The notes under the pieces: generated by a model
What the model saw: the letters and a program-made list of their open reading frames with translations, nothing else
The model's database searches: none
What the model was told of the DNA's origin: nothing
Shown: one piece after another, positions 1 through 25,746 of the stretch
Numbering within the stretch: position 1 is the stretch's first letter
How the letters are laid out: each line of letters opens with the position of its first letter
Program-made: the position numbers and the translations under genes
Virus record (IMG/VR): IMGVR_UViG_2917865565_000006
Span: 1-32,349 of that record
DNA from: a virus
Lineage: Duplodnaviria; Heunggongvirae; Uroviricota; Caudoviricetes
Length of the DNA stretch: 32,349 nt
Strand: one strand, 5' to 3'

Positions 1-996
1 TTATGGACGCATTATGGACATTCCTGACACCGGGTTAAGAGTCACAGCATCTTGTAAGAAATCCGGTGCAAAGTGTGCGTAGGTCATAGTTTGCTGAATG
101 TCAGAATGACCCAGGATGCGCTGCAATGTGATTATGTTACCTCCATTCATTATAAAATGTGTGGCAAATGTATGCCTCAAAACATGCACTGCCTGTCCGT
201 CAGGTAAATCGGGTTTTACTTCCCTGAGAGCGTTGCGCACTTTGTAGTAACTGGCATTAAAAAGCCTGCCTGAATTTTTGGTCTTGATCCGTTTAATCAG
301 GTCCTGCGAAACGGGAATTGTCCTGCGCTTTCCGTTTTTAGTTTTCATAAACGTAACCATCTGGTTAATGATGTGTTCAGCTTTCAAATTAGACACTTCA
401 CTCCAGCGTCCACCAGTAGAAAGGCAGACCAGAGTTGCATTTAACTCATCACCATCAAGCATGGATAACAGCCGCGTAATCTCTTCACTGGACAAAAAAG
501 CCATTTCCGTAACAGCTTCACGTAACCGCTTAACCTCACGGAACGGGTTGTGAGAGTGATATTCACCGGCGTCAATTAACTTGGTGAACATCCCGCTCAT
601 TATTGCCAGATGCCGATTTACGCTGGCTGGTTTTAGACCATCGTTCATCATTACAACGCGATAATCAGTTATCGTTTTCTTTGTTAGCTGGTCCGCCCTG
701 GACACTCCCATCTCAGCAAATTTGGCGATTATTGTCGTCAAACGCCCTCGTTCAATATCTCCACGCTCATGTGATTTTCCGTGATATATCCACCATCTGC
801 CTAACAACTCTGTAAGAGTTCGGCGGTCGGCCGGCTTCTCCAACCACTCTTTGTTGTGGAAGTTAACCAGTACATGACGTTCGAATGCCTGAGCTTCACC
901 TTTAGTTTTAAATTTCCGCCTGATACGTTTTCCATCTGCACCCTGCGGTCTGACGTCCACTTCATAACGACCATCATCGAGCTTTTTAATAGACAT
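1..996 (-). CDS. int: Tyrosine integrase (P2 Int-like), 331 aa
   Basis: Minus-strand ORF at the left edge; C-terminal LRHTFAT and LGHSDIQQTMTYAH motifs match the tyrosine-recombinase catalytic signature; sits next to the C repressor as in P2. Confidence 0.9.
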   Translation of the reverse strand: MSIKKLDDGRYEVDVRPQGADGKRIRRKFKTKGEAQAFERHVLVNFHNKEWLEKPADRRTLTELLGRWWIYHGKSHERGDIERGRLTTIIAKFAEMGVSRADQLTKKTITDYRVVMMNDGLKPASVNRHLAIMSGMFTKLIDAGEYHSHNPFREVKRLREAVTEMAFLSSEEITRLLSMLDGDELNATLVCLSTGGRWSEVSNLKAEHIINQMVTFMKTKNGKRRTIPVSQDLIKRIKTKNSGRLFNASYYKVRNALREVKPDLPDGQAVHVLRHTFATHFIMNGGNIITLQRILGHSDIQQTMTYAHFAPDFLQDAVTLNPVSGMSIMRP

Positions 997-6880: not shown

Positions 6881-8106
6881 ATGAGCATGGTTGAATGGAT
6901 AAGCCACGAGAAAAAAGATAGCCTGATACTATTTGTACATGGATTAAATGGTGGTTTGGAAACATGGAACTTTAATAAAGAAACTTCATTTCCAAAACTA
7001 TTAGCAGAAGATGAAGACATTAGCAATGTATTTGATATTGCATGTTTCAATTATTTCACCAAATTTACACAAACGTATGCTAAAAACGTCAGGATTATTG
7101 GCTCGTATTTTCTCTAAGAAAAATAAGTTAGAGAGAAATTTACCAACTGATGAAATAGCTGAGTTATTGTATACTGAGATTAGGGTAACGCTAAGTGATT
7201 ACTCTCGAATTATAATAATCGCCCATAGTATGGGGGGGTTAATATCAAAAAATCTAATTCTAAAAAAAGTTGAGCATGAGGAACAATCTAATATAATTGG
7301 ATTCATTTCGTTAGCAGTCCCTCACTTTGGTGCTAAATTAGCGAATATAACTTCAATGGTATCTTCAAATGCTCAGTTAGTAGATCTTGGATTGTTAAGT
7401 GAAGCGACTGATACATTGAATAGGCGCTGGATAAATTGTAGCAAAAAACTTCCTATCACTAGATATGTTTATGGTTCTCATGACACTATAGTTGATAAAA
7501 AAAAGTGCATTACCGATGGATAGTGAACGAAATAACTCAATTGCAGTTAATGAAGGGCATAGCTCAATTTGCAAGCCCGAAAACAGCTCGTCTACAGTGT
7601 TTGTTGCGGTAAAGCAATTTATTCAGCAGATAAATTTAGAAGCACCCAAGAAGATATGCGTTGAGCGTTTTTCTGATGAGAAACAATATGATAATGAGTA
7701 TTTCGTCTTAAAAATGATTGTCGCAGATATACATCAGGATATCGCTATGCATGCAAAGGAATATTATTATAATGCTGAGCTTGCGAGAAATATTTTTACG
7801 AGTGATTACGATAGGAAACTACTTGGTCATTTGTATTCTAAAATAAGGGAGATTTACCAGGAAGAGTATGAGCAATACATCGCGAATTCAATTTCCCCAG
7901 ATAAATTTATTGCTGCTGTTCATAGACGAATAGCCCAGGAGGATAAGTCGTCGTTAGATTCTCTTATAAAAAGTTTAGAAACGATACATAAGAAAGGAAT
8001 GTTGCATCAACTGGCTAACAAAAATGACAGGGATATTGTCTGGTCATCCGAAACCAGCGTAGAAACTTTGGAGCAATTACGGCGAGGTAATCATGAAGAA
8101 AAATAA
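6881..8106 (+). CDS. Alpha/beta-hydrolase (lipase/esterase-like) candidate defense effector with C-terminal helical domain; reading frame broken twice (three ORF-track pieces 6881-7117, 7011-7523, 7492-8106)
   Basis: Oxyanion-hole motif LILFVHGLNGG (about 6935-6955), nucleophile elbow AHSMGG (Ser codon 7227-7229) and candidate His in EGHSSICKP lie in three different frames; pieces join if one A is removed from the A5 run at 7082-7086 and from the A8 run at 7497-7504. AT-rich, unlike the backbone. Confidence 0.6.
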
Positions 8107-8606
8107 CTTGCCGTATATTCCTCTTGATGAAGAGTATAGCTTGAATTTTGCTATACTTGCCATTGCTATATCTATATTATCTCATAGCAAAAAAGGAGTG
8201 TTATCATTAGATATTAATAAAATACAAATTTTTTATGTATCTGATAAAAAACCCATCAAAAATAGATTATGCTCTTACAGTTTCGGGGAAAAAACCTGCT
8301 TGTGTCGAGTCCCAGTTAACTTATACAATAAAGAGTTTTTCATCAAATGTAGATATCTTATTCGACAATTCCAAAGTGAAATATCTTATAAAAATTATGT
8401 CATTGCGGGGATTGCTCTCAGCTGAGAAAAAAAATAATGAGAGTGTTAAATTATTTTTATCTGAAAAAGGTAAGGAATTTGCTAGCTCATTGACTGATGG
8501 ATATTTTAAAGAAATAAAACGACTATCCGAAGCATTGTTACCGCTACAAGCATTGCCTACATCTAAGTTAAACTCTGTTATAAATCAAGTCTTCAAGGAG
8601 AAATGA
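8093..8606 (+). CDS. Small middle component of the candidate three-gene system (about 170 aa), frame broken once (pieces 8093-8425 and 8235-8606)
   Basis: Start ATG 8093 with GAGGT RBS overlaps the hydrolase stop; stop overlaps the ATPase start (ATGATGA at 8603); two overlapping ORFs in different frames joinable at an A6 run (about 8246-8300). No recognisable domain. Confidence 0.5.
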
Positions 8607-10574
8607 TGAAATCATATCTCAATATCAATAGTTTGATTCTTGTTGGCGTTCGTAAAAACTACGTCACTACTTTTTATAAAGGTCTCAATGTTATCTACGG
8701 AGACTCTGACACAGGTAAGTCAAGCATTCTGGAGTTTATTAATTATCTTTTAGGTGCTAGCTCTATAGATTTAGCAGATGAAATAAAAACATCAGTAAAC
8801 TATGCTGCTCTTGAAGTAGTGATCAATGATACTGTATTCACAATCGTAAGAGATATCTATGATCATAAAAAAGCAATAGAAGTTTATCGTTGTAAGTTTG
8901 ATGATTTACATAAACATTTTCCGAAAAAATACGCTCCTAATTATAGCCCCTTATCAAATGTTGATGGTGTTTTTTCGGAGTTTTTACTTGATAGTCTTAA
9001 TTTTCCAAAGATTGAAATTAAGGTGTCTCCTTCTAAAGCTCATTCACAGATGCGCAGGTTAAGTTTTAGAAATATATATAAATTTGTTTATGTAAGTCAG
9101 GATGATATTGGTAGTAAATCTTTCTTGCGATTGGGTGATTGGTCCCGCTACGCATTTACGAAAGAAGTTTTTAAATACATGTTCAATGTGTTGGATGAAA
9201 GCATCGCCAGACTCCAAGGTGAAATATCTGCAAAAAGTAGTTTAGTAACTGAATTAAATAAGAAGTATCAGATAATATCTGAATTTCTTCGCGATACAGA
9301 CTATGAAACAATTGAATCAATTGATGATGAGATTAATAGGATAGATCTTGTTTTAGAAGAACTTGTTGCAGGTTTGTCTGCTCTCGATAAAAATATGAAA
9401 GCGGATTCCATGCAGTATACAGAATTGAAAGATGCTCACAATTTTATTTCGCTTAAATACAAAGAGTGCATATTAAATATTAGTGCGCTTGAGGATAAGA
9501 TTGATAAATATTCGCGGTTAAAAAATGACTATGATAATGATATTGAAAAACTCAAAGCGATTAAAACAGCAAATTCTCGCATTGGTGTATTGGATAAGGA
9601 AGTATTTTCCTGTCCAATCTGTGATAGCCACATTAAAATAGATGATTCTGATTTTCCATTTGAAATTTCATCAGAAAAAGATCTTAATGAAGAGTTGAAT
9701 TCACTTAGTCGACGTAGACGAAATATTAATGACATGATCTCAGAAATGTCATTTAAATTAAAAAAAGAATCAGGTTATAAAAAAAGAATTAGATGAACGA
9801 CTTGACGAGTTGAGAGAGTTGATTGACGAAGAAAGCCAGTCAATGATTACACCATTCTTGACTCAGAGAGATTTTTATATTAAAGAGATATCAAAAAATG
9901 AGAAAGTTAGGGAGCAGTTAGTAAAAGATTTGAAGGTTAGAAACCAGCAAGAGGAACTGCTTGAAAAGTATCAGGTACTGAGAAAAGATATTGAAGCATT
10001 AACTGAACGCTTGGAGGCGTTAAAGAAAAACGCACCTAGCATGGAGGGCATTTTACAAGGTTTAGGTGATAGATTTAGTCAGTATTTGAAGGGTATTAAT
10101 ATCAAAAACAGAACGGGGATAAAAATCTCTGAAAGCTATTACATTCCTGTTATAAGAGAAAAAGAATATTTTAAAATAACGTCCGGAGGTTTGAGAACTA
10201 TTTCTTCTATTGGGTATCTTTTGTCTATTCTTGATTATGCAATAGATCATAATGTTAACCATCCTTTACTTTTGATATTTGATACGGTTGGCAAATATTT
10301 AGGGAAACAGACCAAGGAAAAATATTCAAAAGAAACTCTTGCAGTCGAGGATGACCTTGAGGGAATGTCAGATCCGATGAAGTATCAAAATATTTATGAA
10401 CAACTATTGAATACAGTTCAAAAAGCAGAAAGAAAAAATGTTCCGTGCCAGATTATATTAGTTGATAATGATTTGCCTAATTCGTTTTCTACTGGTGAAC
10501 TTTCGAATATTATCGCTCATTATAGCTCGGTTGGTGAGGACGGTTTGCCTTTAGGTTTAATTGATGACCTTTAA
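8603..10574 (+). CDS. Rad50/SMC-like ABC ATPase with coiled coil and CxxC zinc hook (about 657 aa if joined); frame broken once (pieces 8603-9796 and 9810-10574)
   Basis: N-terminal Walker A GDSDTGKSS, Q-loop-like VYVSQDD, long charged helical region, CPICDSH (9611-9631), then in the next ORF the signature-like TSGGLRTIS and Walker B LLLIFD; frame 0 is open from 9762 and joins if one A is removed from the A7 run 9779-9785. Confidence 0.65.
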
Positions 10575-20774: not shown

Positions 20775-21118
20775 CAGCGCGTTATCTCGGAATGAGTCGC
20801 AGTGATGGCCTGACTGTCACTGACCTTGAGCATATCAGCCAGAGTATCGGCGATATCCTGCGTACACCGGTCGGCTCACGGGTGATGCGTCGTGATTACG
20901 GCTCGTTGCTGGCGTCAATGATTGACCAGCCGCAGACCCCGGCGCTTGAGTTGCAGATTAAGGTCGCCTGTTACATGGCGGTGCTGAAATGGGAACCCCG
21001 CGTCACCCTGTCATCCGTCACCACGGCGCGCAGTTTTGACGGGCGAATGACGGTCACGTTAACCGGTCAGCACAACGACACCGGTCAGCCACTTTCGTTA
21101 ACCATCCCTGTGAGTTGA
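20771..21118 (+). CDS. W: Baseplate protein gpW (115 aa)
   Basis: Overlaps the V stop; length matches P2 W. Confidence 0.85.
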   Translation: MTARYLGMSRSDGLTVTDLEHISQSIGDILRTPVGSRVMRRDYGSLLASMIDQPQTPALELQIKVACYMAVLKWEPRVTLSSVTTARSFDGRMTVTLTGQHNDTGQPLSLTIPVS

Positions 21119-21122
21119 AACC

Positions 21123-22031
21123 ATGCCGATTATCGACCTGAACCAGCTACCCGCACCGGATGTGGTCGAGGAGCTGGACTTTGAAACCATTCTTGCCGAA
21201 CGCAAGGCGACACTGATTTCCCTTTACCCGGAAGACCAGCAGGAGGCGGTCGCCCGTACCCTGACGCTGGAATCGGAGCCTCTCGTCAAACTGCTGGAAG
21301 AAAATGCTTATCGTGAGCTTATCTGGCGTCAGCGTGTGAATGAGGCCGCACGGGCGGTGATGCTGGCCTGTGCCGCCGGTAATGACCTTGATGTGATTGG
21401 TGCCAATTACAACACCACACGCCTGATTATCATCCCGGCAGATGATTCGACCATCCCGCCGACACCGGCAGTGATGGAATCTGACACCGATTATCGTCTG
21501 CGTATTCAGCAGGCGTTTGAAGGTTTAAGCGTTGCCGGGTCGGTGGGAGCCTATCAGTATCATGGTCGCAGTGCCGACGGGCGTGTCGCGGATATCTCTG
21601 TCACCAGTCCGTCTCCGGCCTGTGTCACTATCTCCGTGCTGTCCCGAGAAAATAACGGTGTCGCATCCGAAGACCTGCTGGCTGTGGTGCGTAACGCTCT
21701 TAATGGCGAGGACGTCAGGCCGGTGGCTGACCGTGTGACCGTGCAGTCTGCCGCCATTGTTGAATACCAGATAAACGCCACGCTGTATCTTTACCCTGGT
21801 CCAGAAAGCGAACCCATCCGCGCCGCCGCCGTGAAAAAACTGGAAGCGTACATCACGGCACAGCACCGGCTGGGGCGCGACATTCGTCTGTCTGCCATTT
21901 ATGCCGCTTTGCATGTGGAAGGCGTGCAGCGTGTCGAACTGACTGCACCGCTGGCTGACATCGTGCTCAACAGTACGCAGGCGTCTTTCTGCACCGAATA
22001 CAGCGTCGTGACCGGAGGCTCGGATGAGTGA
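21123..22031 (+). CDS. J: Baseplate protein gpJ (302 aa)
   Basis: Synteny and length match P2 J. Confidence 0.85.
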   Translation: MPIIDLNQLPAPDVVEELDFETILAERKATLISLYPEDQQEAVARTLTLESEPLVKLLEENAYRELIWRQRVNEAARAVMLACAAGNDLDVIGANYNTTRLIIIPADDSTIPPTPAVMESDTDYRLRIQQAFEGLSVAGSVGAYQYHGRSADGRVADISVTSPSPACVTISVLSRENNGVASEDLLAVVRNALNGEDVRPVADRVTVQSAAIVEYQINATLYLYPGPESEPIRAAAVKKLEAYITAQHRLGRDIRLSAIYAALHVEGVQRVELTAPLADIVLNSTQASFCTEYSVVTGGSDE

Positions 22032-22554
22032 TTCGCGACTGCTGCCGACCGGCTCATCACCGCTTGAGGTCGCCGCCGCAAAAGCCTGTGCGGAAATTGA
22101 AAAAACACCGGTCAGTATTCGTGAGCTGTGGAACCCGGACTCCTGTCCGGCAAATCTGCTGCCGTGGCTGGCGTGGGCGTTTTCGGTCGACAGGTGGGAT
22201 GAAAAGTGGCCGGAAGCGACAAAACGCGCCGTTATCCGCGATGCCTATTTCATCCACTGTCATAAAGGCACTATCGGCGCAATCCGGCGTGTGGTGGAGC
22301 CGCTCGGCTATCTCATTAACGTAAAGGAATGGTGGGAGACAAACGACCCGCCCGGAACCTTCCGCCTTGATATCGGCGTACTGGAAAGCGGCATCACGGA
22401 GGAGATGTATCTGGAAATGGAACGGCTGATTGCCGATGCCAAACCCGCAAGTCGCCACCTTATCGGTCTGAACATTATCCAGGACATTCCCGGCTATCTG
22501 TATACAGGCGGTGTGGTCTGTGATGGTGATGTTATTACTGTTTATCCCGGATAA
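22024..22554 (+). CDS. I: Baseplate protein gpI (176 aa)
   Basis: Synteny and length match P2 I. Confidence 0.85.
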   Translation: MSDSRLLPTGSSPLEVAAAKACAEIEKTPVSIRELWNPDSCPANLLPWLAWAFSVDRWDEKWPEATKRAVIRDAYFIHCHKGTIGAIRRVVEPLGYLINVKEWWETNDPPGTFRLDIGVLESGITEEMYLEMERLIADAKPASRHLIGLNIIQDIPGYLYTGGVVCDGDVITVYPG

Positions 22555-22564
22555 GTGAGAAACA

Positions 22565-25087
22565 ATGAGCACGAAATTTAAAACCGTTATCACTACTGCC
22601 GGAGCCGCAAAGCTGGCAGCCGCCACTGTCCCCGGCGGGAAAAAAGTAAACCTGTCTGCAATGGCCGTGGGTGACGGTAATGGCAAATTACCGGTGCCGG
22701 ATGCCGGTCAGACGAAACTGGTGCATGAGGTCTGGCGTCACGCTCTGAATAAAGTCAGCGTGGATAACAAGAATAAAAACTATATCGTGGCTGAACTGGT
22801 TGTACCGCCCGAAGTGGGCGGCTTCTGGATGCGTGAGCTTGGTCTGTATGACGATGCCGGAACACTGATTGCGGTATCCAACATGGCAGAAAGCTATAAG
22901 CCAGAACTGGCTGAAGGCTCCGGACGTGCGCAGACCTGCCGCATGGTTATTATTCTCAGCAACGTGGCGTCCGTTGAACTGAGTATTGATGCCAGCACGG
23001 TGATGGCGACGCAGGATTACGTCGATGACAAAATCGCAGAGCATGAGCAGTCCCGCCGCCATCCTGACGCCACGCTGACAGAAAAAGGCTTTACTCAGTT
23101 AAGCAGTGCAACAAACAGCACCAGTGAGTCATTGGCGGCAACGCCAAAAGCGGTCAAGGCAGCAAATGACAACGCAAATTCACGTCTGGCGAAAAATCAG
23201 AATGGTGCAGATATCCAGGATAAATCAGCTTTTCTGGACAATGTTGGCGTTACCAGCCTGACGTTTATGAAAAACAATGGCGAAATGCCGGTTGATGCTG
23301 ATCTGAATACGTTTGGTCCTGTTAAGGCTTATGTGGGTGTCTGGTATAAATCCACATCCTCCAACGCAACACTGGAGAAAAATTTCCCTGAAGACGGTGC
23401 AGTCGGTGTTCTTGAGGTATTCAATGGCGGTAATTTTGCAGGAATGCAGCGTTATACCACCAGAACTGGCAATGTTTATATGCGCAACCTTTCTGGCACC
23501 TGGAATGGCTCAGACGGTCCGTGGAGCTACTGGCGTCAGATTCAGTCAGCAACACGCCCCCTGAGTACAACCATTGACCTGAACACGCTCGGAGACGCAG
23601 AGCATCTTGGCTTATGGCGAAACAGTAGTGGCTCTATCGCTTCATTTGACCGCAACTATCCGGAAGAAGGAAGTTATGGTCAGGGACTCCTTGAAGTTCT
23701 TGAAGGTGGTGGGTACTCACGCATGCAACGCTACACGACCCGCCGTGGGAATGTATATGTTCGCTGCCTTTCTGCTACATGGAATGCAGAGAATCCACAG
23801 TGGGAACCGTGGTTAAGAGTCGGTCATCAGTCAGAGAGTCGTTATTACGACGGGGATTTGAATGATGTGACTTCACCAGGTATTTACAGCGTTACAGGGA
23901 AGGCGACAAACGGTCCAATGCAGGATACCGCTGGAGCGACACTGCTTGGGATACTGGAAGTAATCAGACGTTTTGATGGTGTATCTGTCTGGCAGCGTTA
24001 CACAACCACAGGGAAAGCAGAAACCACAAAGGGGCGCACTTTTGAGCGCATCTACGCCGGGAGCACATGGACTGAATGGCGAGAAGTATATAACTCCTTT
24101 TCGTTGCCCCTGAATCTGGGTATCGGCGGTGCAGTGGCAAAACTCACCAGCCTGGACTGGCAGACCTACGATTTTGTGCCGGGCAGTCTGATAACCGTTC
24201 GGCTTGATAACATGACCAATATTCCCGACGGTATGGACTGGGGCGTCATTGATGGCAACCTGATAAACATCTCAGTCGGTCCGAGTGATGATTCCGGTAC
24301 GGGGCGCTCAATGCATGTGTGGCGCAGCACTGTAAGTAAAGCGAACTACCGCTTTTTTATGGTGCGTATTTCAGGAAATCCGGGAAGCCGCACGATCACG
24401 ACAAGACGTGTGCCAATTATCGACGAAGCTCAGACATGGGCGGCGAAACAAACCTTCAGCGCCGGTCTTTCAGGCGAACTGTCCGGCAATGCTGCTACAG
24501 CTACAAAGCTGAAAACGGCACGAAATATTAATGGTGTCAAATTTGATGGCACCGGCGATATAAATATTAATACGCTGGTATCCCGGAATCGCGTCACAGC
24601 ATTAAGCGGGAGTGCAAAGGGGACGCCTGGTATTCAGATGTATGAGGCATATAACAATGGCTACCCTTACGCCTATGGCAATGTGCTTCATCTTACGGGA
24701 GTGTCCGCAGTTGGAGAAGGTGAGTTACTTATCGGCTGGAGCGGCACCAGTGGAGGTTACGCGCCAGCATATATCCGTTCAAGGCGGGATACAGATGATG
24801 CTCAATGGTCTGGATGGGCGCAAATTTATACGACAGCTCATAAACCATCGGCAGGTGATATTGGTGCTTATACTCAGGCGGAATGTAATTCGCGTTTTAT
24901 TACAGGTATTCGCTTAGGTGGTTTGTCATCCCTTCCAACGTGGAATGGTACTGGCTGGCATGACAGGTCAGGGCATGTTCTTACTGGTGTCGTCAATAGT
25001 AATACTGATGAATTAATTGATATCGCGCAGGCAAGACCTGTTCAGTATTGTATTAATGGCACATGGTATAACGCAGGGAGTATTTAA
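22565..25087 (+). CDS. H: Tail fiber protein gpH (840 aa, longer than the 669 aa I recall for P2 H), with three tandem repeat modules in the distal half
   Basis: N-terminus typical of P2-family fibers; three roughly 75-aa repeats each containing a QRYTT..GNVY/..TW-type core (about 23330-24095). Confidence 0.85.
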
Positions 25088-25617
25088 TGATGATGCATTT
25101 AAAAAATATTAAGGCAGGGAATCCAAAAACTATTGAACAATATGAATTAACCAAACGATTTAATATTGTCTGGCTATGGTCAGATGATGGTAAAAACTGG
25201 TATGAGGAACAAAAGAATTTCCAGCCAGACACTTTAAAAATGGCCTACGACGAGAACGGTATTATTCGTTGCATTGAGAAAGATGTGTCAATGCTCAACC
25301 CTGATGGCTTGAGTGTTGTTGAGTTACCGAATATAACCGCCAACCGTCGCGCTGATATTTCAGGTAACTGGATGTTCAAAGATGACACTGTAATTAAACG
25401 TGTATATACGGATGCAGAACGGCAGCAGCAAGCCGAAGTCCGAAAGTCAACCTTGCTTGCAGAAGCTGAGGCATTGATTCAGCCGCTGGAGCGTGCGGTC
25501 AGGCTGAATATGGCAACAGATGAGGAGCGCAGCCGACTGGAGGCATGGGAACGCTACAGCGTTCTGGTCAGTCGTGTGGATCCTGCAAATCCTGAATGGC
25601 CGGAACTACCACAATAA
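25087..25617 (+). CDS. G: Tail fiber assembly chaperone gpG (176 aa)
   Basis: Start overlaps the H stop (ATGA); AT-richer than the backbone; position matches P2 G. Confidence 0.8.
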
Positions 25618-25621
25618 ATAC

Positions 25622-25650
25622 AGGCGGGCGGATTGCCCGCCTTTTCTTTA
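25622..25650 (+). terminator. Rho-independent terminator after G
   Basis: AGGCGGGC-GGATT-GCCCGCCT hairpin followed by TTTCTTTATCTGTTGTTT. Confidence 0.75.
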
Positions 25651-25746
25651 TCTGTTGTTTCATCCACTGACCAGTCAGGACAAATAGCGTCTCATGCCCT
25701 GTACAACTGAAAATACCACTCACCCATTAACCACGGAGTTAAACGG

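Follow-up and report, generated by a model that had tools for sequence, protein, structure and literature searches.

Here we report the modular composition of the tail fibre gene in a complete P2-like (Peduovirus) prophage, which fills the whole window, that is, the entire 32,349-nt stretch of DNA analysed (IMG/VR record IMGVR_UViG_2917865565_000006). The prophage begins with an integrase gene (positions 1-996, minus strand) and ends with gene D, with genes for replication, head, and tail in between, and its DNA is ~97% identical to that of Escherichia coli peduoviruses such as D8, 11W, and P24E6b. The tail fibre gene H is located in the operon V-W-J-I-H-G, with FI/FII next in order, and is adjoined by the baseplate genes, an arrangement that represents peduovirus synteny. 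The stop codon of H overlaps the start codon of G (TAATG), and the operon is closed by a rho-independent terminator in the 130-nt gap between G and FI, which contains no cargo gene. P2 H and G occupy the corresponding operon position, and in P2 a terminator is present at the equivalent place after G and is followed by fun(Z), whereas FI comes next in the window. The following features were delineated at this locus:

22565..25087, plus strand: tail fibre gene H, an open reading frame of 840 aa with Pfam domains PF12571 and PF03406, PHROG tail fibre family matches, and an exact database match
22565..23017, plus strand: N-terminal baseplate-attachment domain of the P2 lineage, aa 1-151 (Phage_tail_fib, PF12571, E = 3.6e-57)
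23072..23197, plus strand: Phage_fiber_2 repeat, aa 170-211 (Pfam E = 6.1e-21; matches to PDB 5yvq and 8ju3)
23291..23551, plus strand: predicted knob domain 1, aa 243-329
23564..23821, plus strand: predicted knob domain 2, aa 334-419
23846..24097, plus strand: predicted knob domain 3, a divergent copy, aa 428-511 (pairwise z = 3.4-4.2; cross-HMM tests)
24098..24376, plus strand: middle domain with unassigned fold, aa 512-604 (PHROG tail fibre matches only)
24377..24769, plus strand: connector resembling the start of P1 Sv/Sv', aa 605-735, containing the linker motif GNAATATKL...FDG
24770..25084, plus strand: C-terminal tip of the Mu S' / P1 Sv' type, aa 736-840 (105 aa)
25087..25617, plus strand: tail fibre assembly protein G (Tfa), 176 aa (Pfam Caudo_TAP, PF02413, E = 7.2e-35)
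25622..25650, plus strand: rho-independent terminator closing the V-W-J-I-H-G operon (terminator scan and sequence)

An Rfam scan of the whole window returned no RNA family. Two alternative-frame open reading frames overlap H, at 23313-23564 and 24612-24917, and are without any support.

The H protein is identical to RefSeq WP_135406316.1 from Escherichia sp. E2562, and by sequence criteria (the PF12571 match with E = 3.6e-57, the position in the operon, and the ~97% DNA identity of the prophage) it is assigned to the peduovirus tail fibres. Its length of 840 aa compares with 669 aa for P2 H (NP_046775.1), a difference of 171 aa that agrees with the ~170 aa noted in the initial annotation. The two proteins are not collinear over their full length: collinearity extends over aa 1-207 of H, at 84% identity, and beyond this point just the last 66 aa match, weakly, at 35%. 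P2 H contains no knob domain of the kind described below, and its shaft and tip are other than those of H. The extra length is the outcome of replacement of the whole P2 shaft after aa 207 by three knob-type repeats and a middle domain, and not of a local expansion of P2 H. Close to this junction, the Phage_fiber_2 repeat is common to H and to Mu S (aa 110-176). No Pfam model, for knobs or otherwise, matched H aa 212-840, and NCBIfam models gave no match to H, to its segments, or to G.

The tandem repeats with a QRYTT...W..W core that had been noted in the initial annotation are real, although a self-BLASTP search of H returned the identity match alone; segment alignments with shuffled controls were used instead of it. 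The repeat unit is ~85 aa long and occurs three times in tandem. Knob domains 1 and 2 align with a local score of 212, as compared with 27.9 +/- 5.7 for shuffled sequences (z = 32), and share 47% identity. Knob domain 3 is more divergent, with pairwise z scores of 3.4-4.2 and ~25-38% identity to the other two. In a non-circular test with an HMM built from knob domain 3 alone, knob domain 1 scored 22.1 bits (best of 500 shuffles, 10.8) and knob domain 2 scored 9.1 bits (best shuffle, 6.8); in the reciprocal search with an HMM of knob domains 1 and 2, knob domain 3 scored 8.9 bits, a value equalled by one shuffle. All three copies share the pattern DLN..G..(W/Y)...P...G.LEV...QRYTT...R...W..W. 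The internal repeat is thus significant on self-alignment, and the third copy is supported by the HMM tests. The approximate repeat positions in the initial annotation (23330-23560, 23570-23810, and 23870-24095) proved close and were adjusted to the boundaries listed above.

Comparison of the repeat profile with PDB sequences identified the R1 pyocin fibre as the best match (6cl5_A, E = 4.8e-6, chain residues 141-209), followed by the R2 fibres 6ct8 and 6cl6 (~2e-4) and by gp47 of Pseudomonas phage Pa193 (3e-3), and the alignments to the pyocin fibres fall on Knob2. An AlphaFold2 (AF2) monomer model of H aa 230-519 reached a pLDDT of 75.7 and shows four to six strands per repeat, knob domain 3 being its highest-confidence part (block pLDDT 81-89). 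When this model was used as a Foldseek query, 6cl5_A again ranked first (E = 3.4e-6), ahead of receptor-binding proteins of staphylococcal phages. With the exception of phi812 and Pa193 gp47, the matched proteins have already been named as carriers of knob-like domains (Buth et al. 2018, PMC6116203), and close partial relatives of H are named 'pyocin knob domain-containing protein' at NCBI. The predicted monomer is consistent with the knob fold, in which ~85 residues make up a small antiparallel sheet of five or six beta-strands overlaid by loops. By profile and predicted structure, the three repeats are pyocin-knob-type domains situated in the middle of the fibre. Their identity to Knob1 and Knob2 of R-type pyocins (PDB 6cl5, 6cl6, and 6cu2) is ~17-20%, and the arrangements differ: the R-type pyocin fibre has two knobs, followed by an iron-binding shaft and a lectin foot, whereas in H a different domain and an additional stretch of fibre come after three knobs.

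The three-knob block is widespread. A tblastn search detected it in 230 phage records, in 227 of which the match extends over 80% or more of the block. Identity is 66-95% in E. coli and Yersinia peduoviruses and 55-60% in ~185 records that represent mostly T-even phages, in which the block belongs to gp37, the distal subunit of the long tail fibre. In T6 gp37 (AAC61976.1), aa 105-530 of 993 are 53% identical over 433 aa to H aa 226-656, so that the three knobs, the middle domain, and the linker motif are all shared. The T-even protein differs from H in its N-terminal attachment to gp36, in its other distal part and tip, and in its gp38 and gp57A chaperone/adhesin system. The middle domain accompanies the knobs in both T6 gp37 and the fibre of the peduovirus P24B2; it has no relative among PDB sequences and is unrelated to the knob profile (hhalign probability 0.2%), and an AF2 model of H aa 505-840, built from a 43-sequence alignment, had a pLDDT of 37.9. 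Because the block is present both in peduoviruses and in T-even gp37, the knob triplet is interpreted from these sequence comparisons as an old mobile shaft module and not as a recent local expansion.

For the distal part of H, the closest sequenced peduovirus, P24B2, serves as the reference. The two phages have the same gene order V-W-J-I-H-G-FI, and their H proteins have in common the N-terminal domain, the linker, the three knobs, and the middle domain, with 95% protein identity in the knob block. DNA identity is 95.8% over 21065-24532, breaks at 24532, and resumes (96%) at 25620, with 78% identity in G. The breakpoint at ~24532 lies inside the conserved linker GNAATATKL...FDG. Beyond it, P24B2 encodes a longer P2-like tip (...FRPIQKYINGTWYNVAQV), giving an H protein of 911 aa (YP_009877230.1) as compared with 840 aa here, together with a P2-type G, whereas in the window the tip is of the S' type and G is a hybrid. 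By tblastn, H aa 605-757 match the beginning of P1 Sv/Sv' at 68-71% identity, and the C-terminal tip matches P1, Mu, SfMu, and P88; P1 Sv' has ~260 extra aa between the two stretches that match H. The tip is 73% identical over H aa 736-840 to residues 385-488 of PDB 8ju3 (E = 8.6e-46 for the stretch), and its DNA is 68-86% identical to S'/Sv' versus ~40-50% to P2 and P24B2. The 73% identity of the last 105 aa to Mu S'/P1 Sv' and the break from P24B2 bear out the earlier suggestion that H ends in something other than the P2 tip and that its distal part was horizontally exchanged. The tip would be the primary receptor-binding end of H. At 73% tip identity, the receptor and host range of Mu G(-), for which a host list is available (PMC4406740), are not transferable to H and may differ.

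The chaperone gene G follows the same pattern in one half only. An alternative start at 25090 would give a product of 175 aa, as in most database annotations and cluster members. Overall, G is 75% identical to P2 G (NP_046776.1). Its aa 24-100 are 77-79% identical to Mu/P1 U' versus 69% to P2 G, whereas its C-terminal 51 aa (aa 126-176) are 90% identical to P2 G versus 22-25% to U', and sliding DNA identity places the switch point at ~25440-25460. These block identities fit the two-domain layout of Tfa proteins, with a variable N-terminal and a conserved C-terminal domain, the roles of which are taken from the literature: in the structure of Mu Tfa, the N-terminal domain binds the fibre tip and remains on the virion, while the C-terminal domain trimerises (summarised in PMC9608196). 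G is accordingly described as an apparent chimera of a fibre-binding N-terminal domain that leans towards U' and a P2-type C-terminal domain. The N-terminal domain is only modestly nearer to U' (77-79% vs 69%) and could represent an independent lineage.

Base composition changes along the same modules. The G+C content falls from 0.57 in the flanking tail genes to 0.48-0.51 in the knobs and 0.441 in the tip (last 105 codons of H; GC3 0.295), in agreement with the lower distal GC first noted, reaches 0.380 in G aa 1-100, and returns to 0.535 in G aa 101-176. The most AT-rich stretch (G+C 0.38-0.44) thus comprises the tip and the N-terminal domain of G. The initial annotation had included an AT-richer G as a whole in the exchanged cassette, which holds for the N-terminal domain, AT-rich and leaning towards U', and fails for the P2-type C-terminal domain. 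The putative exchanged host-range unit, relative to the nearest peduovirus, is the tip together with the tip-binding half of G, ~24533-25450, and the coincidence of the AT-rich block with these two elements supports this delineation. The knob repeats, which had been taken as the exchanged receptor-binding tip, are excluded from it: they lie in the middle of the fibre and occur in the same order in P24B2, in many other peduoviruses, and in T-even gp37.

From the observed module identities, junctions, composition, and distribution, H is very probably a P2-like prophage tail fibre put together from modules in circulation among unrelated coliphages. The first module is the N-terminal domain of the P2 lineage (aa 1-207), which fits into the baseplate, the second a shaft block of three pyocin-type knobs and one further domain (aa ~226-656), the third a P1 Sv-like connector, and the fourth the Mu S' / P1 Sv'-type C-terminal tip (aa 736-840). 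Under this scheme the knobs would be inherited shaft modules. By analogy, H would be trimeric and anchored through its P2-type N-terminus, and the knobs would form stacked trimeric beads that serve mainly in folding and spacing and possibly in secondary sugar binding. The primary contact would be made by the S'-type tip, with the N-terminal domain of G as its cap, and would be with an LPS-core receptor like that of Mu G(-). As in Mu Tfa, the N-terminal domain of the chaperone would clamp the tip, aid its trimerisation, and probably stay on the virion, and the C-terminal helical domain of G would drive trimerisation. The locus represents ordinary, already catalogued tail fibre mosaicism and no new kind of system: public databases already contain the exact H protein as well as its architecture, and the kind of feature is known. 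Mosaicism of fibre segments among P2, Mu, P1, lambda, and T-even phages was reportedly already recognised in the 1992 paper on the P2 H and G sequences.

A possible contribution of the knobs to host recognition was considered from the variation among close relatives. The 90% identity cluster of WP_135406316.1 groups 32 proteins of E. coli, E. marmotae, and unclassified Escherichia, and the same architecture is present in four complete pig E. coli genomes at 94% DNA identity. Among the ten cluster members of 840 aa, identity is 96-100% in the N-terminal, middle, connector, and tip regions and 89-100% in the fiber-2/linker block (aa 152-242), while the knobs range over 77-99%. The knob alleles assort independently among these ten fibres (for example, 93/79/88%, 93/99/98%, and 77/79/77% for the three knobs), and in comparison with EC556 the DNA identity falls to 71-86% solely between ~23315 and ~23900. 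Variable sites show a modest preference for positions outside the predicted strands (odds ratio 1.9, p = 0.04).

These patterns raise the alternative that the knobs are receptor-binding modules, forming secondary or co-receptor sites for, e.g., O-antigen or LPS sugars, so that the host would be recognised at two levels, as earlier proposed for Knob2 and the foot of R-type pyocin fibres. We consider this possible, if on the unlikely side; if true, the 'receptor-binding-like repeats' of the initial annotation would be essentially right. Fibres with the same tip vary chiefly in their knobs, the alleles of which reassort, and the variation lies preferentially outside the strands, although this loop enrichment is marginal. 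Within R-pyocin fibres, diversity is greatest in Knob2, and sialic acid is bound by a knob-like domain in the K1F endosialidase (Buth et al., PMC6116203); knob variation has also been claimed to follow host range in Pseudomonas phages (PMC12625404). On the other hand, T6 carries the block in the proximal-to-middle third of gp37, far from the gp38-bearing tip, and the same knob alleles are combined with different tips, namely P2-like in P24B2, S'-like in the window, and of the collar/His-box type in P0026. The repeats are also recombination-prone, and recombination alone could give mosaic variation. Taken as a whole, the variation hints at a secondary role of the knobs in specificity and does not amount to proof, yet knob-confined variation among otherwise near-identical fibres fits poorly with a purely structural role.

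A further and rather unlikely reading is that the knobs form a second, independently assorting layer of host specificity, in which case knob alleles would cause differences in host range or adsorption between fibres identical in tip and chaperone. On this reading, the hybrid G would represent a natural Tfa swap at the level of single domains, the tip-binding N-terminal domain travelling together with the tip and the trimerising C-terminal domain being retained by the phage lineage. The available fibres provide a small natural panel, in which the knobs vary on a constant tip or the tip varies on constant knobs, and which could be used to test the contribution of the knobs to specificity. The practical value of the locus is modest and includes natural junctions for the engineering of P2 or tailocin fibres, located in the linker at ~24532 and between the two Tfa domains at ~25450.

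Another explanation for the distal part, namely that the tip and chaperone are the relic of a Mu/P1-type invertible switch (G or C segment) fixed in one orientation, appears improbable. In its favour, H starts to match P1 exactly where the C segment has its cix crossover, with the match extending over the beginning of Sv/Sv', and the tip is of the S'/Sv' type, the one produced by Mu and P1 when the segment is inverted. Mu and P1 possess an invertible segment, an invertase, and an alternative tip/chaperone pair, none of which is present in the window. A search for a relic of a cix/gix inversion site detected no cix-like site in the window at up to 3 mismatches; there is neither a second S/U pair nor an invertase, and the G-FI gap has no open reading frame. 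As there is no cix-like site, invertase, or second tip, the tip is therefore fixed. The C-terminal domain of G is of the P2 type and not of the U' type, and ordinary homologous recombination at the GNAATATKL...FDG linker accounts for the junction.

A recent local tandem triplication within H of this lineage, to which three head-to-tail copies of similar length within 810 nt might point, is extremely improbable and was rejected, since the copies are old by their divergence, the DNA-level repeat signal within H consists of no more than a single 97-nt match (70%), and the order of the three knobs is conserved in P24B2 (95%) and in T-even gp37 (55-60%), that of T6 included; the triplication therefore predates these lineages. 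Outside the triplet, a possible fourth knob is suggested before the tip by a weak partial match of aa 735-756 to the last ~24 columns of the knob profile (hmmsearch, 9.5 bits; hhalign probability 28%).

In the tail fibre gene H, a linker motif (22 residues, not shown) downstream of the three knob domains marks the point at which identity between H and its counterpart in P24B2, the closest sequenced peduovirus, breaks. The features concerned are as follows.

24098-24376, + strand: domain of H following the third knob (aa 512-604)
24470-24560, + strand: linker motif of H (aa ~636-665)

The motif is also present in P24B2 and in the P1 tail fibre segments Sv/Sv', and it occurs twice in the T-even long tail fibre distal subunit T6 gp37 (aa 63-101 and about 500-530). 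It looks like a recombination joint common to fibre modules.

The domain at aa 512-604 has no relative among Pfam, NCBIfam or PDB sequences and is without a usable model, and it always accompanies the knobs, both in P24B2 and in T6 gp37. A distant relative, P0037 (224 aa), appears to stop after one knob and a domain aligning with aa 512-604, which hints that this domain might once have been terminal. An AlphaFold2 (AF2) model of the knob region (aa 230-519), which represents a monomer of a trimeric fibre and whose inter-domain geometry is therefore untrustworthy, also matched staphylococcal phage RBP platform regions in Foldseek over 260-300 columns at a low TM-score (0.37-0.43).

The chaperone gene G has three successive candidate ATG start codons (ATGATGATG, 25087-25092), the first overlapping the stop codon of H; in most database entries the annotated length is 175 aa, but a record of exactly the 176-aa form exists as well. 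Only 130 nt (25618-25746) separate G from FI, and this gap contains the terminator listed below; the late F promoter presumably lies there too.

25622-25642: terminator

The cargo slot between G and FI is empty here, whereas it is occupied by fun(Z) in P2 and by a 534-nt ORF in P24B2.

Between the replication gene A and the portal gene Q, at a position matching the tin/old cargo hotspot of P2, sits a Lamassu (ABC-3C) anti-phage defence cluster ordered LmuA-LmuC-LmuB.

7011-10574, + strand: Lamassu cluster
7011-7523 and 7492-8106, + strand: LmuA, two overlapping ORFs (profile positions 47-145 and 142-342)
8603-9796 and 9810-10574, + strand: LmuB, interrupted by a stop (profile positions 3-398 and 408-641)

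Because both LmuA and LmuB are split, the system may have decayed, or else the sequence may contain errors.
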